Shown in pieces: positions 24 to 17,239 of a DNA stretch of 25,119 nt. The notes beneath the pieces were generated by a model that did not search any database, was not told where the DNA came from, and worked only from the letters and a program-made list of their open reading frames with translations. Positions within the stretch are counted from its first letter, which is position 1; the number at the start of each line of letters is the position of its first letter. Source of the DNA: an uncultured Clostridia bacterium (GTDB lineage Bacteria > Bacillota > Clostridia > Lutisporales > Lutisporaceae); the NCBI GenBank assembly GCA_937976095.1, contig CALJSV010000153.1, positions 1-25,119 of the forward strand. The letters run 5' to 3'. The translations under genes were made by a program, and so were the position numbers.

Positions 24-500
24 ATGAATTACAGGATTGAAAAAAAAGAAGCCTTTCGGATTGTCGGAGCAAAGAGGCATTTTGACTTGAATGTAGAAGA
101 AAATTTTGTACAGGTGCCGCAGTTCTGGGGAGAAACCTTGCAAAACGGTATGATTGTGGAAATTGGGAAGTTATCAAATCGAGAACCTTTTGGGGTCTTA
201 GGTGTAAGCACATGTATGAATGGCAAAGATTTTGACTACTATATTGCTTCAGCTACTGACAAGCCGCTTCCTGAGAACATGCACGAGTACGTGATTCCGG
301 AAACCGCCTGGGCAATATTTGAATGTATTGGGACAATGCCTTATGCTATGCAAGAGCTTCAAAAGAGGATAATAACTGAGTGGCTGCCGACATCAGGCTT
401 CGAATATGTTGATGCACCAGATATTGAGGTTTATCCTGATGGTGATATAAGCTCGCCAAACTATAAGTGTGAAGTTTGGCTGCCAATTATTAAGAAATAG
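24..500 (+). CDS. GyrI-like / AraC-type effector-binding domain protein (small-molecule binding)
   Basis: 158-aa ORF. RBS AAAGGAGAAG sits 6 nt before the ATG. Composition and length are typical of GyrI/SbmC-like effector-binding proteins. The stop is 17 bp before the next gene, so the two are probably co-transcribed. Confidence 0.55.
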   Translation: MNYRIEKKEAFRIVGAKRHFDLNVEENFVQVPQFWGETLQNGMIVEIGKLSNREPFGVLGVSTCMNGKDFDYYIASATDKPLPENMHEYVIPETAWAIFECIGTMPYAMQELQKRIITEWLPTSGFEYVDAPDIEVYPDGDISSPNYKCEVWLPIIKK

Positions 501-517: not shown

Positions 518-1375
518 ATGAGATATACAGAAATAAGTTGTGAATCTGCAATAAATCAGCTTAAAAGGCGTATGCCGTATAGCTGGGATTTAAATATTTA
601 TAGGGGCTGTGAGCATGGCTGCAAGTATTGTTATGCAATGTACTCCCATGATTATCTCGGTTCTGAAAATTATTTCGGCAATATCTTTGTTAAAACCAAT
701 ATTGTAGAGCAGCTTGAAAAGCAGCTTAGTAATCCAAAATGGAAACGGGAGGTCGTAAATATTGGGGGTGTTACTGACAGCTATCAGCCTGCTGAGGAGC
801 AATACAAGTTAATGCCGGACATTCTAAAGCTGCTGATTAAATACAGAACTCCAGCCATTATATCTACAAAATCAGATCTAATATTAAGAGATTATGATTT
901 GATTGATGAGTTATCAAAAATTACTTACATTAATGTTGCAGCAACCATTACAACTATGGATGAAAATGTAAGGAAGCTAATTGAACCTGGTGGAGTGGAA
1001 TCTGCTAAACGCTTCAATATGCTGAAAACATTCAGAAGGTCAAACGCCTCTGTAGGACTGCATGTAATGCCTATCATTCCTTGCCTGACAGATAGCTTTG
1101 AGAATTTTGATATGCTTTTTGGTATGGCTCAAGACAGTAATGTTCATTATGTTTTGCCCGGAACATTGTACCTGAGGGGGAAAACAAGGAATGTATTTTT
1201 TGAGTTTATAAAAAAGGAGCTTCCTCATCTATACAATGATTTAGCAGTACTTTATAAGACTGGTGGAGCAGACAAGGAATATAAGAACTCCTTATATAAG
1301 ATGGTCAACGAGCTACGGGAAAAATACAAGCTTTCAAGCAGTTATACAAAACCAATGAAGGAAAAGCTGGAATGA
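518..1375 (+). CDS. Radical SAM enzyme, spore-photoproduct-lyase (SPL)/DNA photolyase-like family
   Basis: CxxxCxxC motif (CEHGCKYC) lies ~30 aa from the N-terminus. Downstream segments IISTKSDLILRDYDL are shared with the paralogue at 2823-3710. The N-termini also align (MRYTEISCESAINQ vs MHYKEAKSILSANN). Confidence 0.75.
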   Translation: MRYTEISCESAINQLKRRMPYSWDLNIYRGCEHGCKYCYAMYSHDYLGSENYFGNIFVKTNIVEQLEKQLSNPKWKREVVNIGGVTDSYQPAEEQYKLMPDILKLLIKYRTPAIISTKSDLILRDYDLIDELSKITYINVAATITTMDENVRKLIEPGGVESAKRFNMLKTFRRSNASVGLHVMPIIPCLTDSFENFDMLFGMAQDSNVHYVLPGTLYLRGKTRNVFFEFIKKELPHLYNDLAVLYKTGGADKEYKNSLYKMVNELREKYKLSSSYTKPMKEKLE

Positions 1376-2566: not shown

Positions 2567-2822
2567 ATTATCTCCTTTCGATCCCGCAGAACTATTCATA
2601 CATATGCTAAATTTCATTCAGCAACTTCTGTTTTTAATATTCTTATTATATCATCATCTTTACTAAGACTATTAGAGCAAGAAAAGTTATAATTAATTAT
2701 TCCATATATGGTGTTTTTTTAAGAGGTGAATCAAATATGACTATTAGTTGTCATATTTAGTGCGATATAATTATATTGGTGATGATATTGAAAATCTAAA
2801 AAAAGCAGTGAGGAAGGGTTAT

Positions 2823-3710
2823 ATGCATTACAAAGAGGCAAAGTCAATTTTATCAGCTAATAATGGAATGAATATATATCGCGGCTGCACCCATGGCTGT
2901 ATTTATTGTGACAGCAGAAGCAAATGCTACAATATGGAACATGATTTTGAGGATATTCAGGTTAAGATAAACGCTCCTGAGCTCTTGGAAAATGCCCTGA
3001 GGAGAAAACGTAAAAAGTGTATGATTGGAACAGGCGCCATGTGCGATCCATACATGCATATTGAAGTTGAGCTGGGGCATACGCGGAAGTGTCTTGAAAT
3101 AGTTGACAGGTACGGGTTTGGGCTAAGTATTCAAACAAAATCCGATAGAATATTAAGGGATTTGGACTTGTTAAAAAGTATTAACAGCAAATCCAAGTGC
3201 GTTGTTCAGATGACTTTAACAACCTATGATGAGGATCTTTGTGAAATAATTGAGCCAAAGGTTAGTACTACAAGAGAACGTTATGAAGCACTGAAGATAA
3301 TGAGGGACAACGGGATTCCCACTGTAGTATGGCTAGACCCGATTTTACCCCTTATAAATGATACTGAAGAAAATTTAAAAGGCATACTGGGTTATTGCAT
3401 TGATGCTAAAGTATTGGGGATAATTTGTTTTGGAATGGGGTTAACTTTAAGGGAAGGCAACAGAGAATATTTTTATGAGAAGCTTGATGCTCATTTTCCT
3501 GGGCTAAAGAAAACATATCATAAAAAATATGGCTATAGCTATGAACTGAAAAGTGATAACAACGAAAAACTATGGGAGATTTTTCATGACACATGTGAAA
3601 AGAGAGGCATAGTTCATAATAATGGAGAAATATTTAAATATCTTCACACATACGAAGAAGCTGTAGCAACAGAACAAACTACGATGTTTGAGCTTTTTAA
3701 AATTGAATGA
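2823..3710 (+). CDS. Radical SAM enzyme, SPL/DNA photolyase-like family (paralogue of 518-1375)
   Basis: CTHGCIYC motif plus the shared QTKSDRILRDLDL segment. The start is set at the ATG (MHYKEAKSIL) preceded by RBS GTGAGGAAGGG. The upstream TTG at 2748 used by the ORF track has no RBS. Confidence 0.7.
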   Translation: MHYKEAKSILSANNGMNIYRGCTHGCIYCDSRSKCYNMEHDFEDIQVKINAPELLENALRRKRKKCMIGTGAMCDPYMHIEVELGHTRKCLEIVDRYGFGLSIQTKSDRILRDLDLLKSINSKSKCVVQMTLTTYDEDLCEIIEPKVSTTRERYEALKIMRDNGIPTVVWLDPILPLINDTEENLKGILGYCIDAKVLGIICFGMGLTLREGNREYFYEKLDAHFPGLKKTYHKKYGYSYELKSDNNEKLWEIFHDTCEKRGIVHNNGEIFKYLHTYEEAVATEQTTMFELFKIE

Positions 3711-3767
3711 AAGTAATATCCATGTGAGCTGTGGTCCATGGTCTTGCTTCCATCGCTACCATGAAGA

Positions 3768-4979
3768 ATGTTCACTATAGTAAAGAGTGGGGGAAGAAGA
3801 TTGAAGATATTATCTGGAGTAAATAAAGGTGTAAGGCTACTATCTAGAAAAAATTTTGTAAGATGGTTGGTGAGAGCAATGATAATTATTCTTCTGGGTT
3901 TACTTGTGAGTTTATTAATCATCACAGGGGTATTTCTTGCTTATAGCCCGGGAAAACTTCAACCTTTCCTTGATAAAGACGGAAAGGAGCTGAAGGGCAG
4001 CATATCTGAAAAGGTTTTTGTTAATATTGGCGGTGTAAAGCAAGGGATGTTTATCAGAGGTAAGGATATCAGAAACCCTGTTCTGCTTTTCGTTCATGGA
4101 GGCCCATGTTTCTCTGAGTATTTCCTTGTTGATAAATATCCAACGGGGCTTGAGGATGACTTTACTGTTTGTTACTGGGAGGAGAGGGGCGGAGGCCTTT
4201 CTTACAGCTCTGATGTTCCGCTTGAAAGTATGACTTTGGAACAGCTAGCATATGATACGATTGAAGTGACGAATTATCTGCGCAAACGTTTTGGGCAGGA
4301 TAAGATATATCTGGCGGCACACTCTGGAGGAACAATTTTCGGTATCCAGGTTGCAGCTAAAGCGCCCCAATTGTACCATGCATATATTGGTATTGCTCAG
4401 ATTACAAAGCCGATAGAGTCGGAAAAGATAGCGTATAAGTACTTGAGGGAGCAATATAGTGGAGCGGGAAATAAAAAAATGGTTGAAAAGTTAAACCAAT
4501 ATCCAGTTTTAGAAGACGATGCATATGGTATTATGTTTTTTAAATCGCTAGTTCGTGATCAGGCAATGCATGAGCTTGGTGTAGGTACAATGCGTAACAT
4601 GAAGTCCATTGAGAAGGATGTAGTTTTGTCTGTCATGCTGTGCAAGGCTTATACGCTAAAGGAAAAAATAAACCTATGGAAGTCAAAATTTTCATTTATA
4701 AAAAGGACAGAACTGACAGACCAGGTTTTTGCCTCTGATTTAACAACTCAAGTAAGAAAACTTGAAATACCGGTCTATTTTTTTAGTGGTGCGTATGATT
4801 TAACAGTAAACTATGACTTATCAAAATCTTATTTAAATCAATTAGAAGCACCTGTTAAAGGGTTTTATACCTTTGAAGACTCTGCTCATAGTCCAAATTA
4901 CGAAGAACCTAAAAAAATGATGGATATTATTAGGAAGGATGTTATTGCGGGAGAAAACAAGCTTGCCGATAAAGAGTGA
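3768..4979 (+). CDS. Alpha/beta hydrolase, proline-iminopeptidase (S33)-like, N-terminally membrane anchored
   Basis: Contains FVHGGPCFS and LAAHSGGTIFG (nucleophile elbow GxSxG). A hydrophobic N-terminal helix (MIIILLGLLVSLLIITGVFLAY) follows basic residues. An alternative TTG start at 3801 has the better RBS (GAGTGGGGG). Confidence 0.6.
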   Translation: MFTIVKSGGRRLKILSGVNKGVRLLSRKNFVRWLVRAMIIILLGLLVSLLIITGVFLAYSPGKLQPFLDKDGKELKGSISEKVFVNIGGVKQGMFIRGKDIRNPVLLFVHGGPCFSEYFLVDKYPTGLEDDFTVCYWEERGGGLSYSSDVPLESMTLEQLAYDTIEVTNYLRKRFGQDKIYLAAHSGGTIFGIQVAAKAPQLYHAYIGIAQITKPIESEKIAYKYLREQYSGAGNKKMVEKLNQYPVLEDDAYGIMFFKSLVRDQAMHELGVGTMRNMKSIEKDVVLSVMLCKAYTLKEKINLWKSKFSFIKRTELTDQVFASDLTTQVRKLEIPVYFFSGAYDLTVNYDLSKSYLNQLEAPVKGFYTFEDSAHSPNYEEPKKMMDIIRKDVIAGENKLADKE

Positions 4980-4985
4980 TGAAGC

Positions 4986-5045
4986 TATCCCCTCAATATT
5001 TCACTTATAGAATTCCTAACGGACACTTATACGCTATAGTTTTGT
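4986..5045 (-). pseudogene. Relic of the 3' end of an FAD-oxidoreductase gene (paralogous copy of the C-terminus of the 6614-7819 gene)
   Basis: About 46 of 55 nt are identical to 6615-6669. The reverse complement translates to VSVRNSISEILRG*, compared with the VSVKNSVIEILRG* C-terminus of the intact minus-strand gene at 6614. An in-frame stop lies immediately upstream of the relic. Confidence 0.45.
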
Positions 5046-5046
5046 A

Positions 5047-5076
5047 GTTGACTAAAGGCAAAAACTATCATATAAT
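5047..5076 (+). promoter_or_regulatory. Sigma-A type promoter TTGACT-18-TATAAT for the TetR/hydrolase cassette
   Basis: TTGACT at 5047-5052 and TATAAT at 5071-5076 are separated by an 18-bp spacer. Confidence 0.55.
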
Positions 5077-5084
5077 TAATACAA

Positions 5085-5134
5085 GTGACCATATGGTCAC
5101 TAGTATTTTAAAATTGTAATGACCATATGGTCAC
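5085..5134. promoter_or_regulatory. Two palindromic operator sites (GTGACCATATGGTCAC and aTGACCATATGGTCAC), putative TetR binding sites
   Basis: A perfect 16-bp palindrome lies at 5085-5100. A 15/16 copy lies at 5119-5134. Both sit between the -10 element and the RBS of the TetR gene. Confidence 0.6.
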
Positions 5135-5146
5135 GGAGGTGGTTTT

Positions 5147-5767
5147 CTGCCAAAGAGATTATTTTTTGAACTTGATATAGAAAAAAGAAATAGTATTTTT
5201 GATGCTGGGTTAAAGGAATTTGCAGAGCAAAGCTATAATGAGGCTTCAACTAATAATATTGTTAAAGCTGCGGGTATAAGTAAAGGAAGTTTATTTAAGT
5301 ATTTTAATAATAAAGAGGATTTGTACTTTTATACTCTGGACTCTGTTTTAGCCGACTTAGTGGAGGAAATCAAGGATTATATTTCAAGTCTTAAAGGAGA
5401 TATATTTGAAATAATTATTCGCTATTCTGAGGTTGAGTTTAATTGGCATATAAATAATCCAGATAAGTATAGGCTGATTAAAAGGGCGTTTACTGATAAC
5501 AGCTCATCTATTTATCAAAATACTATATATAGGTATAAAGCATCAGGGGATTCTATGTATTATAACTTACTGAAGGATATTGACACAGAAAGATTGAAAT
5601 GGGGGAAGGACAAGACAATTAATATTATAAAATGGGCTATTGAGGGCTTTAATAATGAGTTTAATAAAAAGACTGACACATATACTGATATAAGCGTTAT
5701 GAAATATGCTTATATAAAGGAGCTTAAGGAGTATATGGAAATTATAAAAGAAGGAATATATGAATAA
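5147..5767 (+). CDS. TetR/AcrR-family transcriptional regulator (apparent CTG start)
   Basis: The in-frame translation upstream of the TTG-annotated ORF reads (M)PKRLFFELDIEKRNSIFDAGLKEFAEQSYNEASTNNIVKAAGISKGSLFKYF. This is a canonical TetR HTH N-terminus. The frame opens after a TGA at 5120. The only start-like codon after the RBS GGAGGTGG is CTG at 5147, at a spacing of 6 nt. Confidence 0.65.
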   Translation: MPKRLFFELDIEKRNSIFDAGLKEFAEQSYNEASTNNIVKAAGISKGSLFKYFNNKEDLYFYTLDSVLADLVEEIKDYISSLKGDIFEIIIRYSEVEFNWHINNPDKYRLIKRAFTDNSSSIYQNTIYRYKASGDSMYYNLLKDIDTERLKWGKDKTINIIKWAIEGFNNEFNKKTDTYTDISVMKYAYIKELKEYMEIIKEGIYE

Positions 5768-5781
5768 TTGGAGGTGCTATT

Positions 5782-6588
5782 ATGTTTTATGGTGCAAAGG
5801 GTGGTAATGTAAAAATCGGGAATACAGATATGGACTACGTTTCCTTTGGAAGAGGAAAAAAAACCTTAGTTATTATCCCAGGTCTCTCAGATGGTTTAAA
5901 AACAGTTAAGGGGCTAGCAATAACTCTTGCTATTATGTATAAAGCTTATGCTAAGGATTATAAGGTTTTTGTTTTTAGTCGGAAAAATCAAATGGAAGAA
6001 GGATATTCAACTAAGGATATGGCTATGGATTTGAAAATGGCAATGGATAAGTTAAATATTGAAAATGCACATGTAATGGGTATATCCCAAGGGGGGATGA
6101 TTTCCCAATGCCTTGCAATTGATTATCCGGAAAAAGTTGATAAGCTTATTATTGGAGTTTCTATTTCAAGGCAGAACAAAACCATACAAGATGCGGTAAG
6201 TAATTGGATAGCTTTGGCCGTTAATAATGATTATAAGGGACTGGTTATAGACAAAATTGAAAAGACATATTCAGAGAATAAAGCTAAAACATATAGACCG
6301 TTTTATACTATACTATCTAAGATAGGCAAGCCAAAATCCTTTACTAGGTTTATAGTTCAAGCAAGGGCATGTCTAAATCATAATGCCTATGAGGAGCTTA
6401 ATAAAATAAAGAGCCCTACACTTATTATAGGAGGGGATAGCGACTTAGTTGTTGGAAAAAATACAAGCGAAGAGATGGCAGAAAAAATAGCTCATAGTAA
6501 GCTAATTACATATAAAGGCCTTGGACATGGAGCCTTTGAGGAGGCGAAGGATTTTAATCAACAGATACTTAATTTTTTAAAGGCTTAG
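5782..6588 (+). CDS. Alpha/beta hydrolase fold protein
   Basis: Contains HVMGISQGG (GxSxG), downstream GGDSD, and GLGHGAF (catalytic His region). RBS is GGAGGTG. The start lies 14 bp after the TetR stop, so the two are operonic. Confidence 0.7.
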   Translation: MFYGAKGGNVKIGNTDMDYVSFGRGKKTLVIIPGLSDGLKTVKGLAITLAIMYKAYAKDYKVFVFSRKNQMEEGYSTKDMAMDLKMAMDKLNIENAHVMGISQGGMISQCLAIDYPEKVDKLIIGVSISRQNKTIQDAVSNWIALAVNNDYKGLVIDKIEKTYSENKAKTYRPFYTILSKIGKPKSFTRFIVQARACLNHNAYEELNKIKSPTLIIGGDSDLVVGKNTSEEMAEKIAHSKLITYKGLGHGAFEEAKDFNQQILNFLKA

Positions 6589-6613
6589 TGTCAAAGGTTT
6601 GGAGAGTGTGAAA

Positions 6614-7819
6614 TTATCCCCTCAATATTTCGATTACAGAATTCTTAACTGACACATATAAGTTAGCTATTGAAGGCTCAGATATTAACGAGCCGATTAG
6701 ACAAATGTTACTTGAACTTTGTCTTTCAATTATGTCCTGATAAAAGCTTTGCGTCAGGTTATGCTCCTTTAAATGAGGGAATATGTACCACTGCTTTGCT
6801 GTTATCAAATGCTCAACATGGATTCCGGATCTTTCTATATCATCAGTTATTCCATTGATCAGATCCTTTTGGACGTTCCCATATGCATAGGCCACAAGAA
6901 TGGTACGGTTATTGTGCTTAAAGGTATGGAAAAACTGTATTTTACCTTTTTGCCATAAATGAGCTTTATAATAGGTTGTTACTAGGTTTTTGCTGCTTAC
7001 TTCATATGCACAAGTGATGAATGGATTGGTATCAATTTTCTTCATTAGTTGATTGCATAAATCGTCTTTGATGACATCTCTCGGCAGCTTGGTTGTAATA
7101 AGCACCTTGTCATAATAGTCGGAACCAAAGGCGGTTTCGACTTTCACTTTGTTACCCATAACTTCAATATTGTGAACCTCAATAGAATATCTTATATCCG
7201 ATATGTTTTGACTAAGCTTATTTATTAACTCTGAGGTGCCTTTGTTAATGAACAAAAGCTTATCTCCTCGTATAAAAGACAATATGGTGTCCACATTAAA
7301 GACCTTAAGTGCGTAGAAGGCCTGAGTACTATATATATCTCCAAAGCCATAGGAGGAAAGGTGAGGTGCAATAACCTGGTTGATGATATTCAGGTCATGC
7401 TTTCTGAGAAAGTCATACAACGGAACCAGTAAGTCTTCATGAATATATCCGTAATTAACAGTATTAATTGATGCAGAATATTTCCCCAAAAGCATCTTAA
7501 GCTTAGCCAGCTCATCCATTAGTAAAACCACATCTTCCCTTGACATATGCTCTACATTATTAAAATTTTCATCAACAAAGTTTCTGTAGGTAAATCTCTC
7601 AGTATAGTCAAGTCGCAGCTCTATCAGCAGCTCTTTAATCTGCTTTGTAAATGCGAAAACTGTGCCAAGCTCAGCAAATAAGTCTTTACTTGCAAATGTT
7701 CTGCAATGACCCCCTATATGCTCCTGCTTTTCATAAACAGTGACGTCTATTCCTTCTTTTTCTAGTAAGTATGCCGCGAGCATACCACTGAAACCCGCTC
7801 CAATAATAGCTATTCTCAT
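6614..7819 (-). CDS. FAD/NAD(P)-binding oxidoreductase (amine-oxidase/protoporphyrinogen-oxidase-like superfamily)
   Basis: N-terminal Rossmann motif IAIIGAGFSGMLAAYLLEKEGIDVTVYEKQEHIGGHC. The start is set at MRIAIIGAG, preceded by RBS AAAGGGGATTTT. Confidence 0.65.
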   Translation of the reverse strand: MRIAIIGAGFSGMLAAYLLEKEGIDVTVYEKQEHIGGHCRTFASKDLFAELGTVFAFTKQIKELLIELRLDYTERFTYRNFVDENFNNVEHMSREDVVLLMDELAKLKMLLGKYSASINTVNYGYIHEDLLVPLYDFLRKHDLNIINQVIAPHLSSYGFGDIYSTQAFYALKVFNVDTILSFIRGDKLLFINKGTSELINKLSQNISDIRYSIEVHNIEVMGNKVKVETAFGSDYYDKVLITTKLPRDVIKDDLCNQLMKKIDTNPFITCAYEVSSKNLVTTYYKAHLWQKGKIQFFHTFKHNNRTILVAYAYGNVQKDLINGITDDIERSGIHVEHLITAKQWYIFPHLKEHNLTQSFYQDIIERQSSSNICLIGSLISEPSIANLYVSVKNSVIEILRG

Positions 7820-7829
7820 AAAATCCCCT

Positions 7830-8816
7830 TTAATACTGCCTGTCAATATATGCCCATAAGGGCAGGATAAGGCGGCTATTTGTTAATTTATTATGATACT
7901 CAATAGGAGAACATACCTCATCCTCAAATGCTGTCTTATGGCTTATGTTGTATGCTCTAATGTACTTCTGAAGCTGAATTCTCAGATCATTGAAGGAAAT
8001 ACCTTCATGGATCAGAGGTATTAGAAATGATAGGCAGCCTTCTGTATATTGCTTTCTTAATTCGTCAATCATCGCCATGCTATCATCTGATTTAAGTATA
8101 TGTATTTTTACATCAAGTCCGTTATCTTGAGCTATTTTGCTAACTCTTGAGTTCAAGCTGCTTCTGGTTTGCTTAATGATTTTTAAATCATGGAAAAAGC
8201 AGAAGTACTTAACGTGCAAGCTTAGTGTTTGAGCCACCGGTATAGCTACAGCAGTTAATAAATCTTCAAAATTCTCAAATGATATATCGTGATACAGCCT
8301 TGTGCATGCTATTCTGCTTCTAAAATCAAATAAGGTATACTCATAAATGTTGCCTTGGGTTTGAAAATCCCCATAATAAGTTATCCAAAATATCCAGCAT
8401 TCTCCGCTGTTTAGTTCACTTATAGGAGGGAGCTGACTTGGGGGATTGTTTTCCTTCTTTTTTATAAATCTGACCCTGCTTTCTTTATTGGTAAGGTGGT
8501 GTCTTTTCATAACATTAAAGACAGCTGACTCACTTATGTTATATCCGATTTCTTCCAAAAGATATTTAATAGCCTTTGGTCCATAGCTGGGATATGCTTT
8601 CAATAGACTTAGCAATGCGTTTTCTATCTCATTGCTTGTTTTATTGACAGGAACAAAATCCTTCTTAACATCATCAAGACCTTCGATCCCCTGAGTTTTA
8701 TATCTTTTTAACCAACGATAATAAAGTGTCCTGGAAATGTTATATTTTCGGCAAGTTGTGCTTATGCCGTTTATTTGTCCTTCACTTATAATATTAAATT
8801 TAAGGTTTTTGTGCAT
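7830..8816 (-). CDS. Transposase-like protein: N-terminal HTH plus degenerate rve/integrase-core domain (IS481/IS3-like), probably domesticated
   Basis: The HTH segment is ISRTLYYRWLKRYKTQGIEGL. The core segment GECWIFWITYYG...LFDFRSRIACTRLY...YHDISFENF matches the integrase-core pattern, but the first catalytic Asp is replaced (W-I-T-Y rather than T-D-I-T). No inverted repeats are visible, and the gene abuts the oxidoreductase start. The start codon is uncertain (8816, 8828 or 8840). Confidence 0.45.
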   Translation of the reverse strand: MHKNLKFNIISEGQINGISTTCRKYNISRTLYYRWLKRYKTQGIEGLDDVKKDFVPVNKTSNEIENALLSLLKAYPSYGPKAIKYLLEEIGYNISESAVFNVMKRHHLTNKESRVRFIKKKENNPPSQLPPISELNSGECWIFWITYYGDFQTQGNIYEYTLFDFRSRIACTRLYHDISFENFEDLLTAVAIPVAQTLSLHVKYFCFFHDLKIIKQTRSSLNSRVSKIAQDNGLDVKIHILKSDDSMAMIDELRKQYTEGCLSFLIPLIHEGISFNDLRIQLQKYIRAYNISHKTAFEDEVCSPIEYHNKLTNSRLILPLWAYIDRQY

Positions 8817-8956
8817 AACAACCACCATTTTTACAATCAATTATTTTTGAGTGAGTAATATACTTTTTATTTTACCATCCCCAATGGTCTCCTTCAACAG
8901 TTAAAACTGTACCAAAGTATTTTAAATACTAATATCGAGCGCTGCTTGTAAAAAAA

Positions 8957-9065
8957 GTTACTTTGGATTTCTGTTTACAATCACTCTAGAGAAAGGTGTC
9001 AAGAATAGTCTGATTATTATGAGGCTACAGTATATTATGATATGTAAACACATAGGTAAAGTAAC
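8957..9065. repeat. Bipartite inverted repeat GTTACTTT-N7-TGTTTACA / TGTAAACA-N7-AAAGTAAC
   Basis: The left arm is at 8957-8979. The right arm at 9043-9065 is its reverse complement. The two 8-mers are separated by 7 nt in both arms. The pair sits upstream of the hypB promoter. Confidence 0.4.
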
Positions 9066-9094
9066 AACTCGAGAAAAACGCGTAAAATTCTTAA

Positions 9095-9123
9095 TTGTTG
9101 CGGCTTTTTTATCTTGCTATAAT
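9095..9123 (+). promoter_or_regulatory. Promoter for the hypB operon (TTGTTG-17-TGcTATAAT, extended -10)
   Basis: TATAAT lies at 9118-9123, preceded by TG. A -35-like TTGTTG lies 17 bp upstream. A second TATAAT is at 9130. Confidence 0.4.
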
Positions 9124-9153
9124 CAAAGTATAATCAGTTGCTGGAGGTCGAGT

Positions 9154-9819
9154 ATGAGTGAGTTAAAAGTTTTCACAATCAAAAAAAATATTCATGAAAA
9201 TAACGCTAAAGTTGCTCAAGCCACAAGAGAAGAATTAAAAAAGCAAGGTACATATCTTATTAACATCATGTCATCACCAGGTAGTGGAAAGACATCGACA
9301 CTTGTTAGTACAATCAAAGCATTAAAGGATGAGATTAAGATCGGTGTTATGGAAGCTGATATTGACTCGGATGTTGATGCAATAGCTGTTCAGACGGCAG
9401 GGGCAAAAGCAGTTCAAATGCACACAGGTGGGATGTGCCATTTAGACGCTACCATGACAAAGCAGGGTATTGATGAGTTAGGTGTAGAAGAATTGGACCT
9501 GGTTTTTCTGGAGAATATCGGAAACCTGATATGCCCGGCAGGCTATGATGTAGGAGCAATGAAAAATATAGCTATTTTAAGTGTTCCGGAAGGCGACGAT
9601 AAGCCTTTAAAATACCCTAAGATATTCGGGAAAGTAGATGTGCTGATCGTCAACAAAATCGATGTAATAGAGCATTTCGATTTTAGAATGGATTTGCTTG
9701 AGGAAAGAGTAAGAAAGCTGAACAAGGATATTACTATCTTTCCCATATCAGCAAAAACCGGTGAAGGTATGGATGAATGGTTAAATTGGATTAGAAAAGA
9801 AATAAAAACAAGGGGGTAG
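9154..9819 (+). CDS. hypB: Ni-metallochaperone GTPase HypB (G3E family)
   Basis: P-loop SSPGSGKTST. CH metal site GGMCHLDA. ENIGNLICPA and NKIDV motifs. RBS GGAGG lies 6 nt before ATG 9154. The longer ORF from 9019 would run through its own promoter. Confidence 0.8.
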   Translation: MSELKVFTIKKNIHENNAKVAQATREELKKQGTYLINIMSSPGSGKTSTLVSTIKALKDEIKIGVMEADIDSDVDAIAVQTAGAKAVQMHTGGMCHLDATMTKQGIDELGVEELDLVFLENIGNLICPAGYDVGAMKNIAILSVPEGDDKPLKYPKIFGKVDVLIVNKIDVIEHFDFRMDLLEERVRKLNKDITIFPISAKTGEGMDEWLNWIRKEIKTRG

Positions 9820-9824
9820 AAACA

Positions 9825-12599
9825 ATGCCCAAGAAACAAGAAAAAACAAACTTTAACAAGTCAAAGAGGTTTAACTTTGCTCTAAACTGGGCGGATGTAG
9901 ATGGTAGAGAGTATAGGCAAGAGATAGTGGACCTTGCAAACAAGATCGGAAGGACAAAAGCAGGCTCAAGCAGGGAGGCAATTCCCTTTGGTCCTGAATA
10001 TTATGCCCTTGCACCGATACTCAACGAATACCAAGCAAAAACAGCGATGCACTTGGAATTCCGTAAAAAGCTCAATGCAGAGGATGTTGCAAAAGCATCA
10101 GGAGAGCCATACGAAAAGGTAAAGGAAGCTCTGGACTATATTGCCTGGGCTGGAGTTGCCTTTGTAAATACAATAGCTGGAGTAGACGTGTATTGGCAGG
10201 ATATCTTTGTACCAGGCCACTTGGAAATGATAAATAACAACAAAGAGCTGGTTGCCAAGCACCCGGAGGTAGCAGAAGCCTTCTACTATTTTGGAAGCAA
10301 AAGAGGACCTATGGCTGCAGGCATAATGCCTATTGGTGCAGGACCAATGCGCGTACTGCCTATTGAAAGATCCATTGATGGAAACTCAAGAAAAGCTTCC
10401 TATGAAGAGCTGTCAAAGCACTTAAACGAAGCAAAAGTGTTCTCCGTATCTGATTGTTCCTGCAGGACTTCTCGTGAAGAAATGGGAGAAGGCTGCGGAC
10501 ACTTAAAGGAAAATATGTGTATTCAATTAGACCATGCTGCTGAATACTACATAAAAACAGGACGTGGAAGGAAGATCACTCGAGAAGAAGCCTTTGAGAT
10601 CATTAAAAGAGCAGAGGACAATGGCTTGATGCACTCTATTCCGAACTTGGATGAGCCGGGGCACACCCATGCTATTTGCAATTGCTGCGGATGTGGCTGT
10701 TATGCCATGAGATTAGCCAATGAATATGTAAATAATGATATTGTCAGGTCTAATTATAAGTCGGTTGTTGATGAATCTAAATGTGTAGCTTGCGGCGAGT
10801 GTGTGGATGTTTGTCCTACAAATGCATTAAGACTTGGACAGAAGCTATGCTCCAAAGCGCCTATTGATGAAAAAATGGTTAAGGCTACACCGAGAAATAA
10901 TGAGTGGAAGGAAGACAAATGGAACAGCGATTATAGAGTTAACAGGAAAAATACACTGGACTCAGGTACTGCTCCTTGTATTACCAACTGTCCCGCACAC
11001 ATTCCGGTACAGGGCTATATTAAGCTGGCTTCACAGGGTAAATATACAGAAGCCTTGGAATTGATTAAGAAGCATAATCCACTTCCAGCAGTATGCGGAC
11101 GTGTTTGCCCAAGACTGTGTGAGGAAGACTGTACACGTGGTGATATTGATGAAGCTGTAGCCGTTGATGATATCAAAAAGTTTATTGCAGAGCAGGATAT
11201 AAATAAGGATATTCGCTACATACCGAAGAAAAGACATGACTACAGTGACAAGAAGGTTGCCATTATCGGCGGAGGTCCTTCAGGGCTGACATGTGCTTAT
11301 GACTTAGCTATAGATGGTTATGATGTAACAGTATTTGAAAAAGAGAAAATGCTAGGGGGCATGCTGACATTTGGAATACCATCCTACAGGCTGGAAAAGG
11401 ATGTTATAGAAGCGGAAATAGCTATACTCAAGGAAATGGGAGTTAAGTTTGAGACCGGTGTGGAAGTCGGAAAGGATGTATCGATCCAAGGACTTAGAGA
11501 TAAAGGCTTTAATGCTTTCTATGTCGCTATCGGTGCGCAATCAGGAAGAAAGCTGGGATTAGAAGGGGAAACCGCTGCTGAAGTAATAAGCGGTGTAGAC
11601 TTCCTTCGAACAGTTAATTTGTCTGAACCAACCAACGTAAAGGGTAAAGTGATTGTCATTGGTGGAGGTAACGTTGCAATTGATGTTGCAAGATCTGCCG
11701 TAAGACTGGAAGGCGTAGTGCAAACAGATATTTTCTGTCTGGAAGCAAGAGAGACTATGCCTGCGCACCCTGAAGAAATAGAAGAGGCCTTGGCGGAAGA
11801 TGTGAATGTCAACACTTCATGGGGTCCGACGAGGATTATAGCAGAAAACGGTAAAGTAACAGGAGTAGAATTCAAGCGTTGCCTTTCTGTTTTTGATGCA
11901 GATGGCAGATTCAATCCAAAGTTTGATGAAGCAGATAAAAGGATTGTTGAATGTGATTATGTCTTGTTATCCGTAGGGCAAACCTACGACTATGGAAAGC
12001 TTCTGGAAGGTGAAGGTGTAAGGTTAACCAATAGGAATACAATTGAAGTGGATCCTGTGACTCTTCAAAGTTCAAAAGCAGACATTTTTGCCGGCGGAGA
12101 TGTTGCAAGTGGTCCAAAATTTGCCATAGATGCCATAGCGGCTGGTAAAGAAGCAGCAATTTCCATACACAGATTTGTACAAAGAGGTCAGTCCTTGGTA
12201 TTCGGTAGAGATACACACTCCTACAAAATGCTTGATAAGGAAAACCTGGGTGAAATACAAGGCTATGATGGTACAGTAAGACAAGGGACAAATCATGTGG
12301 ATGGCAAGGTATCAAAAACAACCTTTAAAGACTTAAGAGGTATCTTAACAGAAGAACAGATTAAGAAGGAAACAGCAAGATGTCTCGGCTGTGGTGCCAC
12401 TAAAACAGATGAGTACCTATGTGTTGGATGCGGAGCATGCACACTCAAGTGTAAATTTGAAGCAATAAAGCTTGAGAGGGTTAATGATGCAAAAGGTTAC
12501 AGAATTGAAGACCTGCCAAAGGTGGTAATTAAAAAAGCATTAGCCAGAAAAGTCAAAATAATGGCAAACAAAATAAATCCTTTTACAAAAGCAAGATAG
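9825..12599 (+). CDS. Multi-cluster Fe-S flavoprotein with three parts: an unknown Cys/His-rich N-terminal domain, a 4Fe-4S ferredoxin motif, and a GltD/NfnB/SudA-like FAD/NAD(P)H oxidoreductase with a C-terminal Cys cluster
   Basis: CVACGECVDVCP (ferredoxin). CITNCPAH...PAVCGRVCPRLCEEDC (GltD-type N-terminal clusters). VAIIGGGPSGLTCAY and VIVIGGGNVAIDVA (two dinucleotide folds). C-terminal CLGCGATKTDEYLCVGCGACTLKC. The N-terminal ~330 aa contain SDCSCRTSREEMGEGCGH and HTHAICNCCGCGC. Translationally coupled to hypB (5-bp gap, RBS GGGGG). Confidence 0.7.
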   Translation: MPKKQEKTNFNKSKRFNFALNWADVDGREYRQEIVDLANKIGRTKAGSSREAIPFGPEYYALAPILNEYQAKTAMHLEFRKKLNAEDVAKASGEPYEKVKEALDYIAWAGVAFVNTIAGVDVYWQDIFVPGHLEMINNNKELVAKHPEVAEAFYYFGSKRGPMAAGIMPIGAGPMRVLPIERSIDGNSRKASYEELSKHLNEAKVFSVSDCSCRTSREEMGEGCGHLKENMCIQLDHAAEYYIKTGRGRKITREEAFEIIKRAEDNGLMHSIPNLDEPGHTHAICNCCGCGCYAMRLANEYVNNDIVRSNYKSVVDESKCVACGECVDVCPTNALRLGQKLCSKAPIDEKMVKATPRNNEWKEDKWNSDYRVNRKNTLDSGTAPCITNCPAHIPVQGYIKLASQGKYTEALELIKKHNPLPAVCGRVCPRLCEEDCTRGDIDEAVAVDDIKKFIAEQDINKDIRYIPKKRHDYSDKKVAIIGGGPSGLTCAYDLAIDGYDVTVFEKEKMLGGMLTFGIPSYRLEKDVIEAEIAILKEMGVKFETGVEVGKDVSIQGLRDKGFNAFYVAIGAQSGRKLGLEGETAAEVISGVDFLRTVNLSEPTNVKGKVIVIGGGNVAIDVARSAVRLEGVVQTDIFCLEARETMPAHPEEIEEALAEDVNVNTSWGPTRIIAENGKVTGVEFKRCLSVFDADGRFNPKFDEADKRIVECDYVLLSVGQTYDYGKLLEGEGVRLTNRNTIEVDPVTLQSSKADIFAGGDVASGPKFAIDAIAAGKEAAISIHRFVQRGQSLVFGRDTHSYKMLDKENLGEIQGYDGTVRQGTNHVDGKVSKTTFKDLRGILTEEQIKKETARCLGCGATKTDEYLCVGCGACTLKCKFEAIKLERVNDAKGYRIEDLPKVVIKKALARKVKIMANKINPFTKAR

Positions 12600-12630
12600 A
12601 TTATATCTGTAGAAATTGAGGTATAGTGTA

Positions 12631-12972
12631 ATGCACGAACTAGGTATCGTTTATGAAGTCATCAAAATAGTCGATGGATTTGCAAAGGAAAATAATCTGA
12701 CAACAGTAGATAAAATTGTATTGGAGGTTGGACAATTATCTCAGGCAATTCCAAGATTTATTGAAGAGTGTTATCCTGCGGCAGTTAGTGAAACCGCATA
12801 TGAAAACACTAAGCTGGAGATCATTGTGCTTCCAGCCAAAGCAAAATGCAAGGCTTGCAATGAAGTATATAATATTATAGAGCACAGGAAAATCTGTCCT
12901 GAATGCCAGGGAGATGAATATAAATTAATATCAGGACAGGAATTCAATATTAAAGAAATTGTAGCATTTTAG
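12631..12972 (+). CDS. hypA: Ni-metallochaperone HypA
   Basis: N-terminal MHE (Ni site) followed by LGIVYEVIKIV. Zinc-ribbon CKACNEV...CPECQG. RBS GAGGT lies 8 nt before ATG 12631. Confidence 0.8.
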   Translation: MHELGIVYEVIKIVDGFAKENNLTTVDKIVLEVGQLSQAIPRFIEECYPAAVSETAYENTKLEIIVLPAKAKCKACNEVYNIIEHRKICPECQGDEYKLISGQEFNIKEIVAF

Positions 12973-13014
12973 AAGCTAACACACAGATTATATTATTATG
13001 ACAGGAGGTTTATC

Positions 13015-13980
13015 ATGGGGGTTTTTGAAGGTTTTTCAATGGGGAGTATTGTTGCATTTGTTTTATTTCTAGCCGTAATGCTTGGAGTGAACGAAGTTAC
13101 AAGAAGATCAAAATCGTTATCTATATTGGTGTACTGTGTCCTGCCTGTGGTATTGGCGGGGTTGGTATTCTCAGGAGTACTGGGGTCACCTACGGGAAAA
13201 ACATGGTTTGCTTGGGTTAAGGTAGTATCTGCATTGGCAGGTGTTTATGGCTTTATGCTGATCAGATTCACTAAGCTGGGTAAAAGTAGATTTGCAGCTA
13301 TATTCCCTGTAACTATCTTAGCATTGAACATTGCTGAAGCGGTTTATAGAGAATTTCAAGTATTTGCAACCTATAAGACATTAGAAGTAGATCCAGGCGG
13401 AGTCCTTGTCCTTGGTGGAACTTGGAATATTTTGAATGCAATAGCAGGAATTCTATGTATAGTAACCCTGACAGGATTTATTGGAATCAAGGTATCGAAA
13501 GACAAGTCAAGGGATATGGTATGGCCTGATATGACATGGATGTATATTATTGGTTATACATTATGGAACTTTGCATATGTTTACAATTGTATTTCAACAA
13601 GATCCATGTATGCCGGATTTGGCATCCTATCAGCAGCGCTTATTGCAGAATTTGTATTTAAAAGAGGGGTATGGCTTCAGCATAGAGCTCAGATTTTATC
13701 CTTTTATGCCATGTTTTCTCTGTCCGTAGATTTTCAGCAGAGCAAGTATTTCCAAGTACTGCCTACTTATAGCGAAGGTGCACTGATGACCATAAGCACT
13801 ATATCATTCTTGTTTAATGTAGGCGTGTTTGCTTATATGATTTACACAATCATAAAATACAAAAAGAATCCATTAAAGGAAGAGATTTATACTCATACTA
13901 ATTACTATAAGAAAAGCTTGATAGCCAATAATCTAGAGACGAAATCACAGGGGAAGCCCCTGAAAAGCTATACAGCATAG
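13015..13980 (+). CDS. Polytopic integral membrane protein of unknown function (last gene of the hypB operon)
   Basis: About 8 hydrophobic segments. RBS CAGGAGG. A strong terminator follows immediately downstream. Confidence 0.5.
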   Translation: MGVFEGFSMGSIVAFVLFLAVMLGVNEVTRRSKSLSILVYCVLPVVLAGLVFSGVLGSPTGKTWFAWVKVVSALAGVYGFMLIRFTKLGKSRFAAIFPVTILALNIAEAVYREFQVFATYKTLEVDPGGVLVLGGTWNILNAIAGILCIVTLTGFIGIKVSKDKSRDMVWPDMTWMYIIGYTLWNFAYVYNCISTRSMYAGFGILSAALIAEFVFKRGVWLQHRAQILSFYAMFSLSVDFQQSKYFQVLPTYSEGALMTISTISFLFNVGVFAYMIYTIIKYKKNPLKEEIYTHTNYYKKSLIANNLETKSQGKPLKSYTA

Positions 13981-14368: not shown

Positions 14369-15643
14369 TTGTTATTTAAAGACTTAGATATAATCATGCC
14401 TATTCAGAAGGCTTTAAAGACCGAAAAATATGATACGCCCACTCCTATACAGGAAAAAGCTATTCCATCCATACTCGCGGGGAGAGATTTGCTTGGATCT
14501 GCACGGACAGGCACTGGAAAGACAGCTGCTTTTGCTATTCCCATATTACAAGTCCTTTCTCATGAAAGGAAAGCTATAAGGCACAATCATATAAGAGCCC
14601 TAATACTGGCACCTACCCGTGAGTTAGCTATACAGATCGGAGAGAGCTTTGAAACCTATGGGCAATATTTAGACCTAAGGACCACGGTGGTTTACGGTGG
14701 AGTATCGCAGATCCATCAAACTGATGCCTTAGGAGCAGGGGTTGATATTTTAGTCGCAACTCCTGGTAGACTGCTTGACTTGATGAGCCAAGGATATATT
14801 AAAATTCATCATGTAGAGATGTTTGTACTTGATGAGGCAGATCGTATGCTGGATATGGGAATGGTGCATGATGTAAAAAAAATAATAGCTCAGCTGCCTG
14901 AGAAAAGGCAAAACATGTTGTTTTCTGCCACAATGCCCCAGGGGGTTGCACAGCTTGTAAATTCTATTTTGGTAAATCCAGTCAAAATAGAGGTTAAGCA
15001 TAGGGCATCCACTACTAAGAGTATTAAGCAGGCAGTATATTATGTTGATGGAAAAGATAAAATTGCACTGTTGATTTATCTGTTGAAAAGTAAGACTATT
15101 ACTTCTGCCTTCGTATTTACACGAACCAAGCAAAGGGCAGATAAGGTTAGCAAAGCCCTAACGCAGGAGGGTATAAAGGCTCAAGCTATTCACGGAGATA
15201 AATCGCAGCAGGCCAGGCAAATGGCTTTAAATGGCTTTAAGGATAGGACGTTTAGGGTTTTGGTAGCGACAGATGTAGCAGCAAGAGGTATTGATGTAGA
15301 AGAAGTTTCCCACGTTATTAATTTTGACTTGCCTAATATACCGGAAACTTATGTACACCGAATCGGACGAACCGGAAGGGCTGGCATGGGCGGAACAGCA
15401 ATATCCTTTTGCGATAATCAAGAGAGAGCATACCTTAAGGACATTGAAAAGCTTATTTCAAAATCAATAGAAGTAATCAGGAGTCATCCATATCCACTCA
15501 TGAATATGGTATTGGAGCAGAATAGGGCTTCTGAAAAAAGCTCATCTAAAGCCCCTGCGAGAAAACCTAATCCAAAAGCTGCTTCAAAGGGAGATAGAGG
15601 CAAAGTAACTGAGAATCAAAGGGAAAAAAAAGGTAGAGCTTAG
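14369..15643 (+). CDS. DEAD-box ATP-dependent RNA helicase (CshA/RhlE-like) with basic C-terminal tail
   Basis: Q-motif context TPTPIQ. Walker A ARTGTGKT. DEAD box. SAT motif. HRIGRTGRAG. TTG start at 14369 with RBS GAAGGAG at a spacing of 8 nt. Confidence 0.85.
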   Translation: MLFKDLDIIMPIQKALKTEKYDTPTPIQEKAIPSILAGRDLLGSARTGTGKTAAFAIPILQVLSHERKAIRHNHIRALILAPTRELAIQIGESFETYGQYLDLRTTVVYGGVSQIHQTDALGAGVDILVATPGRLLDLMSQGYIKIHHVEMFVLDEADRMLDMGMVHDVKKIIAQLPEKRQNMLFSATMPQGVAQLVNSILVNPVKIEVKHRASTTKSIKQAVYYVDGKDKIALLIYLLKSKTITSAFVFTRTKQRADKVSKALTQEGIKAQAIHGDKSQQARQMALNGFKDRTFRVLVATDVAARGIDVEEVSHVINFDLPNIPETYVHRIGRTGRAGMGGTAISFCDNQERAYLKDIEKLISKSIEVIRSHPYPLMNMVLEQNRASEKSSSKAPARKPNPKAASKGDRGKVTENQREKKGRA

Positions 15644-16107: not shown

Positions 16108-16734
16108 ATGGATAAAGAAGTATTACAAAATAGCGGCCAACTTGAACAATTAACTGCAGCTGAAATTTGGAAGAAGCTATATGGTAAGGAGCTTGACTGC
16201 AAGAAGCATATCATAGAGTACATTGAAATAACCAAGGTGCTAAAAAAGGAAAATGCAAGTCAGGATCAGATAAAGGATACGTATAATTATATTTATGAGC
16301 ATATAGATGGGCTGAAGGATACAATAAAACCAAATACAATGATGTTTTTAAAGAATAGCTTAAAATCACAGCTTGGAAAATATGTTAAAGAAAAGGATCC
16401 AAAGCTTTTAAATCACTTTGTTGAGTTTTTTAAGGAGGCATACCCTGAAAACAGCAGAAGAAAGGATTTTACATGGGTTCTAATGGATGTAAACAGCATA
16501 TCAGAGGAACAGCTCTGGACTACATTGACCCATATTAATAGAGAGTGCCTAAATAACAGCCTTAATCTGAATCCCAGTCAAAAAAAAGACATAATAGAAG
16601 TGATTGAAAAGGCTGTAGGTAAGAACAATATTAAGTTTATTAATAAGGTTAGGAGCCTAAAAAAATTAAACGAGGAATTAGATATTTCAATTGTTAGTAT
16701 TGGTGAAGTACTCAAGGTAAGGCGTAATCGATAA
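16108..16734 (+). CDS. Hypothetical protein
   Basis: 208-aa ORF with RBS AAAGGAG 7 nt before the ATG. No recognisable motif. Confidence 0.45.
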   Translation: MDKEVLQNSGQLEQLTAAEIWKKLYGKELDCKKHIIEYIEITKVLKKENASQDQIKDTYNYIYEHIDGLKDTIKPNTMMFLKNSLKSQLGKYVKEKDPKLLNHFVEFFKEAYPENSRRKDFTWVLMDVNSISEEQLWTTLTHINRECLNNSLNLNPSQKKDIIEVIEKAVGKNNIKFINKVRSLKKLNEELDISIVSIGEVLKVRRNR

Positions 16735-17199: not shown

Positions 17200-17239
17200 C
17201 ATTAGTAAATATTTTCAAATATATATAAGGAGAAGCAGT

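Follow-up and report, generated by a model that had tools for sequence, protein, structure and literature searches.

Organization of the Locus

The window analysed here is the whole stretch of 25,119 nucleotides, in which a TetR-family regulator gene and an alpha/beta hydrolase gene (hyd2) form a short operon between another alpha/beta hydrolase gene (hyd1) and a convergent gene for a FAD-dependent oxidoreductase (Table 1). Two direct repeats, designated DR-A on the left and DR-B on the right, directly adjoin the operon; the stop codon of hyd1 (TGA, 4977-4979) abuts DR-A, and DR-B is the end of the oxidoreductase gene. The open reading frame of hyd1 begins at 3768, and the database call, starting at 3801, exactly matches P0121. 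Its nearest relative is a protein of Anaerosolibacter sp. (P0122, 81% protein identity), and a 79% homologue in locus L037, the only relative with a readable context, lies in a different context without an oxidoreductase. No significant similarity could be detected between hyd1 and hyd2.

A conserved synteny block ends with the oxidoreductase, which was found at the block edge in all 36 related loci, in each of which a HTH_28/HTH_32 neighbour protein is syntenic with it. Beyond the oxidoreductase, the DNA varies among the loci whose downstream genes were read, and the site can therefore be regarded as a rearrangement-prone boundary. Neither hyd1, TetR nor hyd2 was observed beyond the oxidoreductase in these loci (0/36), and a second oxidoreductase copy was likewise absent (0/36). 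A search for a second oxidoreductase 3' end within about 8 kb, in the 31 loci with enough downstream sequence, also gave no case (best scores 20-35, versus 71 for the repeat pair of the window). Moreover, no tRNA was detected, and Pfam scans of 18 window proteins from this 25-kb contig revealed no integrase, recombinase or transposase domain.

Table 1. Positions of genes and sequence features around the TetR-hydrolase operon
Feature	Position	Strand	Description
hyd1, alpha/beta hydrolase	3801-4979	+	392 aa; Pfam Abhydrolase_1/Hydrolase_4; left flank of the insertion site
AGAGTGA, last bases of hyd1	4973-4979		Matches AGAGTG at 6603-6608; candidate 6-nt microhomology for the right junction
DR-A	4980-5036	-	Dead duplicate of the oxidoreductase 3' end: 17 codons, internal TAA, stop TAG, 5 nt of 3' flank
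Putative inserted module	5037-6608	+	Self-contained TetR-hydrolase operon, 1.57 kb; nucleotide homology to L041, L099 and L098 confined here
Predicted module promoter	5048-5076	+	TTGACT, 17 nt, TATAAT; best promoter-like site in the region (11/12 positions)
Two perfect 16-nt palindromes	5085-5100, 5119-5134		GTGACCATATGGTCAC; probable TetR operators
TetR-family regulator	5147-5767	+	206 aa; Pfam TetR_N (PF00440), E = 5.7e-14
hyd2, alpha/beta hydrolase	5782-6588	+	268 aa; Pfam Abhydrolase_1, E = 7e-21; second gene of the module
DR-B	6609-6665	-	Functional oxidoreductase 3' end: 17 codons and stop TAA (6614-6616), 5 nt of 3' flank
FAD-dependent (amine-oxidase-like) oxidoreductase	6614-7819	-	401 aa; Pfam Amino_oxidase/NAD_binding_8; P0001 is the exact protein

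The Repeat Pair

A repeat search of the window identified DR-A and DR-B as its sole long repeat, with 47 of 57 positions identical (82%) and a spacing of 1629 nt; identity rises to 87% in the core (4986-5031 versus 6615-6660). The gapped local alignment of the two copies scored 71, whereas approximately 2000 random pairs of 320-nt window pieces gave a mean of 19.8 (sd 2.7) and a maximum of 36. The repeat is real and far above chance. A repeat of ~85% identity had been placed at 4986-5045 and 6615-6669 by an earlier note on this DNA, and it is borne out as lying in this 57-nt repeat. An independent Logan assembly (L042, equivalent to window 2940-5270) reproduces the left junction with 100% identity, so that this junction is not an artefact of the present assembly; L042 covers the left junction only, and an assembly artefact is ruled out there.

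Within the repeat, a 17-nt core (TATCCCCTCAATATTTC) is perfectly identical in both copies and occurs exactly twice in the window, even when 3 mismatches are allowed. This core is absent from 97 related loci (~1.0 Mb), the only exception being the second assembly of the window itself. Across 544 kb of related loci, matches to the repeat were confined to oxidoreductase 3' ends, and no match to the repeat pattern was obtained among 2.9 million viral contigs. A terminator or structured RNA was considered and rejected: the repeat contains no palindrome, hairpin or stable structure (fold z-scores of 0.0 to +1.3, that is, 0 or above) and has no Rfam match.

Both copies can be read as coding sequence on the minus strand. 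As the earlier note had proposed, DR-B is the true C-terminus of the oxidoreductase, which ends in …LYVSVKNSVIEILRG and a stop, and the upstream copy is a non-functional relic preceded by a stop: DR-A reads VSVRNSISEILRG with a stop codon on either side. At the protein level, the likeness between the oxidoreductase and the DR-A side of the window is restricted to the last 13-17 codons.

Ancestry of the Two Copies

DR-A and DR-B have in common the codons GTG, TTG and AGG, a stop at a Tyr codon, and the first bases after the stop, and orthologues read codon by codon differ from both copies at these positions. The early stop (after …ILRG) is unique to DR-A and DR-B, and 119 of 119 homologues continue past its position. 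Since these derived states are common to both copies, DR-A comes from the gene end of this lineage itself and not from a distant paralogue, and the two are sister sequences. In the authors' reading of the alignments, the ten differences between DR-A and DR-B, when polarised by the orthologues, comprise six changes on DR-A, two on DR-B and two ambiguous positions; a nonsense change (TAT to TAA) is among the six derived changes on the DR-A branch. Such a 6:2 excess is as expected where a neutrally evolving relic lies next to a gene end under constraint. The divergence of 18% between the copies fits an old in-situ duplication, and it fits copies from two related genomes equally well. As a measure of relic age, approximately 0.1 substitutions per site on DR-A would place the event, reconstructed rather than observed, in the ancient past.

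The TetR-Hydrolase Module

Close relatives of the operon were found in three other loci, with nucleotide identities of 86.6% (L041, window 5037-6586), 83.9% (L099, 5037-6587) and 82.1% (L098). In all three, homology stops at the inner edges of the repeats (window 5037 and 6586-6608), and the flanks differ in all four loci. The bounds of the module are reproducible, with each copy in a different genomic context, and the 1.6-kb unit can be retained, as first described, as a discrete cassette between two oxidoreductase 3' ends. No direct repeats surround the module in L041, L098 or L099 (scores of 18-24, versus 71 in the window), nor was a DR-like sequence found at either of its ends there. Homologues of hyd2 at 80-84% identity are also located in other contexts. 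In L038-L040, the last ~95 nt of TetR is all that remains.

The module has a GC content of 32%, compared with 37-39% in the flanks, and a GC3 of 28%; both values are the lowest in the window. Conservation of its predicted promoter extends to L041 and L098 and, in part, to L099. The two palindromes lie between this promoter and the TetR start codon and are conserved as rTGACCnnnnGGTCry in all three loci; they probably serve as TetR operators. The regulator, 82% identical to the protein of L041, probably starts at a CTG codon behind the Shine-Dalgarno sequence GGAGGTGG, and the same position is occupied by ATG in L098 and TTG in L099. The arrangement resembles autoregulated operons of TetR and an effector enzyme, in that a regulator with a TetR_N helix-turn-helix immediately precedes an alpha/beta hydrolase and two palindromes resembling operators overlap the promoter and 5' UTR, although here the regulator appears to start at CTG. 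A plasmid or phage origin of the module was rejected, as distant blastn gave no plasmid match to the region and no viral contig carried the repeat pattern.

Origin of the Repeat

The upstream copy is probably a leftover of the resident gene's own 3' end, produced by an illegitimate insertion of the TetR-hydrolase operon. Before the insertion, hyd1 and the oxidoreductase gene would have been convergent and nearly abutting, with a predicted junction of …GATAAAGAGTGATGAAGCTATCCCCTCAATATTTC… leading into the oxidoreductase body. The 1.57-kb operon may then have been wedged between them, at a point 17 codons inside the oxidoreductase, by a one-off illegitimate recombination of the microhomology type, either through a template switch or through microhomology-mediated joining, and presumably with no involvement of an element-encoded recombinase. 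The incoming right end (…GAGAGTG) would have been linked back to the chromosome at AGAGTG(A), where hyd1 ends; as this lies 57 nt behind the join of the left end, the intervening 57 nt would have been copied twice. With 57 bp of the target duplicated, the oxidoreductase would have been left intact on the right (DR-B), and the left copy, cut off from its gene, would have decayed by one nonsense change and five other derived substitutions.

Several features of the locus are consistent with this order of events. DR-A and DR-B are target-derived and flank 5037-6608 without a gap on both sides, as an insertion scar requires, and the same module with the same ends exists without repeats in L041, L099 and L098. 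One insertion event, in which 57 bp of the resident gene end were duplicated, accounts for these features together with the derived states common to both copies and the absence of a second oxidoreductase copy or 3' end from the related loci. At the right junction, a gapped alignment matches AGAGTG at 4973-4978 with AGAGTG at 6603-6608, a 6-nt match with a rough chance probability of about 0.005. The bases after the hyd2 stop are GAGAGTG and GAAAGTG in L041 and L098, and the AGAGTG at 6603-6608 therefore probably belongs to the incoming module. The putative microhomology at this junction is suggestive only; illegitimate joins typically involve 3-10 bp (PMC3240628).

The closest experimental parallel is provided by insertions in Escherichia coli that arose by illegitimate or single-crossover recombination and in which duplications of the lacZ end of 109-950 bp flank inserted DNA (PMC3240628). 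In both cases, approximately 1-2 kb of foreign DNA lies between direct duplications of the terminal segment of a gene, with short or no homology at the novel joint and no transposase or integrase, whereas the duplication here is shorter (57 bp). Elsewhere the module occurs without a homologous segment, and a simple Campbell-type crossover would therefore not be sufficient here. An empty site, in which hyd1 and the oxidoreductase face each other without the module, was not found in the collections because these hold no close relative (the nearest protein identities are 85% for the oxidoreductase, 81% for hyd1 and 84% for hyd2). Two further points speak against the proposed insertion: the hyd1 homologue of L037 does not adjoin an oxidoreductase, and target duplications made by transposases are far shorter than 57 bp.

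Alternative Explanations

A less likely but credible origin is recombination between two genomes, by homology-facilitated illegitimate recombination (HFIR) or a similar process, of which one carried hyd1 convergent with the oxidoreductase and the other carried the module convergent with it. The recombinant would have arisen from a homologous crossover in conserved DNA together with an illegitimate join 17 codons into the oxidoreductase end, and DR-A and DR-B would be orthologous ends from two close relatives that were never identical. The 57-bp duplication would then need no explaining, the 18% divergence would not call for long decay in situ, and exchanges of this kind are to be expected at a site like this one, on the variable margin of a conserved block. 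In naturally transformable bacteria, HFIR places ~1 kb of foreign DNA beside conserved DNA through one microhomology-assisted illegitimate junction and gives rise to variable segments where conserved blocks end; however, it normally couples insertion with a deletion in the recipient, not with a duplication (PMC3240628). Moreover, two unobserved parental arrangements would be required, and neither hyd1 nor the module adjoins the oxidoreductase in any related locus. The early stop and following bases common to both copies would make donor and recipient very close relatives, the AGAGTG match would be a mere coincidence, and the 6:2 excess on DR-A, in the authors' reading, fits relic decay.

It is improbable that a whole second oxidoreductase gene, paralogous or duplicated, once lay convergent to hyd1 and was later deleted except for its last 17 codons, with the deletion reaching to just before the TetR promoter. 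In favour of this, the relic keeps the reading frame, stops at the position where the resident gene stops and lies 5 nt from the hyd1 stop like a convergent gene, and gene-end relics formed by deletion do occur in these loci, as the remnant of TetR in L038-L040 illustrates. Nevertheless, a second oxidoreductase or a second 3' end is found in none of the 36 and 31 loci, respectively, and the route would take two or more events, a duplication and a deletion, with the right breakpoint of the deletion having to coincide exactly with the module bound set by L041, L098 and L099. As the relic is sister to the resident gene, any such paralogue would have been a recent local duplicate. The earlier note had taken the relic for the remainder of a separate paralogous oxidoreductase, and this part of its account is not supported: beside the absence of second copies (0/36) and second 3' ends (0/31), the relic has the lineage-specific derived states of the resident gene, among them the early stop seen in no homologue, and on its inner side it ends exactly where three other loci independently place the left bound of the cassette. 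The TetR-hydrolase pair and the oxidoreductase, for which an association as a unit elsewhere had been raised, were never found together in the related loci examined. A tandem duplication of a unit of hydrolase and oxidoreductase end was also rejected, given the lack of significant similarity between hyd1 and hyd2.

Site-specific elements carry their att sequence, use a recurrent target site and depend on a tyrosine or serine recombinase, which may be lost in a CIME. The repeats could accordingly be attL and attR of an integrase-less, CIME-like island that targets the oxidoreductase 3' end and whose recombinase is encoded elsewhere. The layout is similar to that of CIMEs, which by definition sit in a gene's 3' end, with direct repeats around the cargo, of which the one beside the gene restores its terminus and the other, distal one is a truncated gene end (PMC5704250), and the 17-nt identical core would suit an att site. 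On the other hand, the module copies of L041, L098 and L099 are free of an att or DR-like sequence at either end, the site shows neither recurrent use nor a duplicated end among 31 relatives, identity between the repeats reaches only 82%, no integrase or recombinase is encoded on the 25-kb contig, and the pattern is unmatched in 2.9 million viral contigs and the region in plasmids. This scenario is very hard to credit and already largely refuted. Integration at a tRNA or through an integrase was likewise set aside, as neither a tRNA nor a recombinase was found, and so was a recurrent hotspot with duplicated oxidoreductase ends (0/31 related loci).

IS elements, transposons and MITEs have terminal inverted repeats and a short target-site duplication of 2-14 bp, and encode a transposase if autonomous. 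Such an element was rejected for this locus on account of the 57-bp duplication, the lack of a transposase and the absence of inverted repeats at the module ends (score 12 versus a shuffle mean of 13.8).

REP-like repeats are present in many copies per genome, are intergenic and are usually palindromic. A chance likeness, or a dispersed repeat of this type unrelated to coding sequence, which the earlier note had named as the finding that would refute its reading, can practically be dismissed in view of the alignment score (71 versus at most 36 in random pairs), a copy number of two, one copy being coding, in the 25-kb contig of this genome that was searched, the restriction of matches in 544 kb of related loci to oxidoreductase 3' ends, a 17-mer core absent from 97 loci, and no palindromic or stable structure (z 0.0 to +1.3) or Rfam match.

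Implications

The scar is a real but ordinary mark of genome rearrangement; it leaves the knowledge of recombination unchanged and gives the repeat no new function. A far-reaching and very unlikely extension would be that the TetR-hydrolase operon is a discrete, recombinase-less mobile cassette with sharp, identical ends in at least four unrelated contexts, repeatedly captured by a template-switching or microhomology pathway of the host, landing at gene 3' ends and duplicating tens of target bases. If true, it would represent a class of gene mobility in which the element itself encodes no machinery.

With the insertion of the operon as the preferred reading, the locus would provide a clean and datable case of an accessory operon wedged at the edge of a conserved block without mobile-element machinery. 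Such events leave short pseudogene fragments, which are ignored by annotation pipelines and can be mistaken for regulatory repeats or att sites. Here, the DR-A relic would mark the pre-insertion junction, give a rough relative age for the insertion, and delimit a self-contained TetR-hydrolase module that recurs in several Clostridia.

Gene content of the contig

The window is a complete metagenome-assembled contig of 25,119 nt with a GC content of 38%, and its nearest relatives point to a Clostridia-like source organism. Its features are listed below. No PADLOC matches were obtained for the four genes of the cluster at 16108-24968, and the DEAD-box helicase that precedes it shows only a generic likeness to BrxH/DpdF-type helicases.

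Features of contig CALJSV010000153.1 (forward-strand positions)
Feature	Position	Strand	Remarks
Cass2/GyrI-like effector-binding protein	24-500		
Radical-SAM protein	518-1375		Distant paralogue (31% identity) of the gene at 2748-3710
APH-like kinase	1493-2617	minus	
Radical-SAM protein	2748-3710		
hyd1	3801-4979	plus	Alpha/beta hydrolase
DR-A	4980-5036		Left repeat copy
Module	5037-6608		TetR-hyd2 operon
Promoter	TTGACT (5048), 17 nt, TATAAT (5076)		Near-consensus
Palindromes	5085-5100 and 5119-5134		Two, perfect, 16 nt, GTGACCATATGGTCAC
TetR-family regulator	5147-5767	plus	
hyd2	5782-6588	plus	Alpha/beta hydrolase
DR-B	6609-6665		Right repeat copy
ox	6614-7819	minus	FAD amine-oxidase-like oxidoreductase
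HTH_28/HTH_32 protein	7830-8840	minus	336 aa, N-terminal HTH transposase-like
HypB/CobW, 924-aa Fer4/Pyr_redox_2 protein, HypA, DUF5692			Divergent from HTH_28/HTH_32 protein
DEAD-box helicase	14369-15643		
Four-gene cluster	16108-24968	plus	Two proteins (208 and 212 aa) without any Pfam match; SPFH/Band_7 protein (711 aa); 1649-aa DUF3686 + AAA ATPase

A duplicated gene end on both sides of a TetR-hydrolase module

A repeat search of the window confirmed the direct repeat that the earlier note had described around the TetR/hydrolase cassette, and showed it to be 57 nt long, with 47/57 positions identical between DR-A and DR-B. It is the sole substantial repeat in the window: local alignment of the two copies scores 71, whereas approximately 2000 random pairs of window segments averaged 19.8 and never exceeded 36, and the identical 17-nt core occurs at only two places, even when three mismatches are permitted. 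DR-B comprises the last 17 codons of ox, the stop codon and 5 nt of 3' flank, and is thus the true ox C-terminus, as had been proposed; on the minus strand DR-A reads as VSVRNSISEILRG between two stop codons. Window positions 2940-5270 recur with 100% identity in L042, an independent assembly from Logan, and therefore the junction of hyd1, DR-A and the TetR promoter is no artefact of this particular assembly. The repeat and its relic are real.

Across 544 kb of related loci, every match to the repeat lies at an ox 3' end. Its 17-mer core is absent from 97 loci (approximately 1.0 Mb), except for the window's own duplicate assembly, and from viral contigs, and no plasmid match was found for the repeat/module region. 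With two copies in the window and only ox 3' ends matched elsewhere, chance similarity is excluded as far as the window and the related loci go, and so is a widespread REP-like repeat, the competing reading named in the earlier note. There is no evidence of a function for the repeat.

By sequence comparison, the interval between DR-A and DR-B can be defined as a discrete module. Its ends were set by homology to other loci, independently of the repeat, and coincide with the borders at which DR-A ends (5036) and DR-B begins (6609), which upholds the idea of a cassette insertion that left a gene-end relic. Nucleotide homology reaches 86.6% in L041 (JGI metagenome 3300077666; window 5037-6586), 83.9% in L099 (window 5037-6587) and 82.1% in L098 (Alkaliphilus peptidifermentans), where clear similarity begins at the same AGTTTT(G/T)TAGTTGACT. 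The flanking genes differ in all four loci: hyd1 and ox in the window, a DUF3592 protein and an aldo-keto reductase in L041, a CBAH protein and FUR in L098, and an unknown protein and an acetyltransferase in L099. Both GC (32%) and GC3 (28%) of the module are the lowest in the window, the GC3 being the lowest among all 18 genes on the contig, and the flanks on both sides have 37-39% GC. No terminal inverted repeats were found at the module ends, and no direct repeats surround the other three copies (scores of 18-24 versus 71).

The TetR-hyd2 pair is retained in the closest hyd2 relatives (L041, L098, L099, L043 and L058), and this TetR is wholly absent from more distant ones. In L038-L040, where hyd2 is 84% identical, no more than the final ~95 nt of TetR precede it (e.g., L038 9901-10000); loss of the regulator has left another gene-end relic in the module family there, independent of DR-A.

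The cargo is a predicted ordinary autoregulated TetR-enzyme operon. One palindrome lies just after the -10 box and the other overlaps the ribosome-binding region; both are kept as rTGACCnnnnGGTCry in L041, L098 and L099, and these candidate elements are probably TetR operators. Neither ATG, GTG nor TTG is available as a start for the TetR gene (window 5135-5152); among in-frame candidates, only CTG at 5147 follows a strong Shine-Dalgarno sequence, GGAGGTGG. The start position holds ATG in L098, TTG in L099 and CTG in L041, and the CTG looks like a genuine initiation codon. ORF callers miss it, the automatic ORF listing beginning at 5321.

The ox neighbourhood in related genomes

Comparison was based on 36 loci with ox orthologues at 53-85% identity. 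A strongly conserved block of DUF5692, HypA, the 924-aa Fer4/Pyr_redox protein and HypB runs divergently from the HTH protein and ox, and ox is the last conserved gene in 36/36 loci. Taken together with the HTH protein and ox, the DUF5692-HypA-Fer4/Fer4_20/Pyr_redox_2-HypB(CobW) block (window 6614-13980; L002-L036) is syntenic in approximately 30 Clostridia and Mycoplasmatota genomes, with gene identities of 55-90%, and has nickel-chaperone genes with no hydrogenase or urease in view. The C-terminal ~230 aa of the HTH_28/HTH_32 protein gave no catalytic-domain match; the position of this protein, directly upstream of ox in all 36 loci, suggests a dedicated regulator or partner and not a mobile-element gene.

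Beyond ox, the genes vary among loci whose downstream genes were read (e.g., an M20 peptidase in L001 and an Abhydrolase_2 protein in L003). None of the 36 loci contains a second ox, or hyd1, TetR or hyd2 within 8 kb, and a second copy of the own ox 3' end is absent from all 31 loci with enough downstream sequence. The suggestion that TetR-hydrolase and ox might occur as a unit elsewhere found no support, since they were never together outside the window among the loci compared.

Origin and age of the relic

All 119 ox homologues extend several residues past the stop of the window protein (6614-6619, minus strand), which is one to sixteen residues shorter; it ends in …EILRG where typical relatives end in …EILEGYxTK. 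The stop position, a TAT (Tyr) codon in the closest orthologues, is common to both copies (TAG in DR-A, TAA in DR-B). Read codon by codon against the nearest orthologues, DR-A and DR-B also share GTG at the residue that follows Tyr, TTG instead of TTA and AGG instead of GAG or AAG, and the bases directly after the stop are similar. These shared derived states indicate that the two copies are each other's closest relatives, and rule out a distant paralogue as the source of DR-A. The alignments place that source in this lineage's own gene end, or in that of a very close relative.

By our own reading of the alignments, polarised with the orthologues, six of the ten differences between the copies arose in DR-A, the change of TAT to TAA among them, and two in DR-B, where AGT became ATC (Ser to Ile) at a variable position; the other two are ambiguous. 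Six versus two is what would be expected if a relic evolves neutrally next to a gene end under constraint. The DR-A branch amounts to about 0.1 substitutions per site, against a synonymous distance of 0.95 between ox of the window and that of L001, the nearest orthologue; very roughly, the duplication may be one fifth as old as that split, with a large error as only six changes are involved.

Proposed mechanism and alternatives

The simplest history that we infer begins with hyd1 and ox convergent, their stop codons 5 nt apart. Illegitimate recombination would then have brought in a 1.57-kb operon, its left end joining the chromosome at 5036/5037, 17 codons inside ox, and its right end (…GAGAGTG) joining the matching AGAGTG(A) at the hyd1 end. 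A GAGAGTG-type motif also follows hyd2 in L041 and L098. With the right joint placed 57 nt "behind" the left one, those 57 nt would be copied twice by template switching during replication or by repair of a staggered break; ox would stay intact and DR-A would be left as a geneless fragment. Microhomologies of 3-10 bp are typical at illegitimate joints, and experiments have yielded insertions bordered by a duplicated stretch of a gene end (PMC3240628); the 6-nt microhomology at the right joint weakly supports the mechanism. No empty site was found among relatives.

HFIR-like recombination between two genomes, with DR-A and DR-B as orthologous ends from two close relatives, would need no 57-bp duplication; however, it requires two arrangements, neither of which was observed, and reduces the AGAGTG match to coincidence. 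The lost paralogous ox of the earlier note, deleted down to its end, demands two events and a deletion breakpoint exactly on the module boundary; unsupported in the 36 relatives, and with DR-A closest to DR-B, it is unnecessary. Site-specific integration of a CIME-like island (as defined in PMC5704250) is contradicted by three negatives: no att-like sequence at the other module copies, no recurrent site use and no recombinase on the contig. The feature fails the defining tests of a transposon, an integrative element and a REP repeat.

The duplicated ox end works like a target duplication from illegitimate insertion, whose two testable structural hallmarks were both found here, and adds one more example to a known type of genomic scar.
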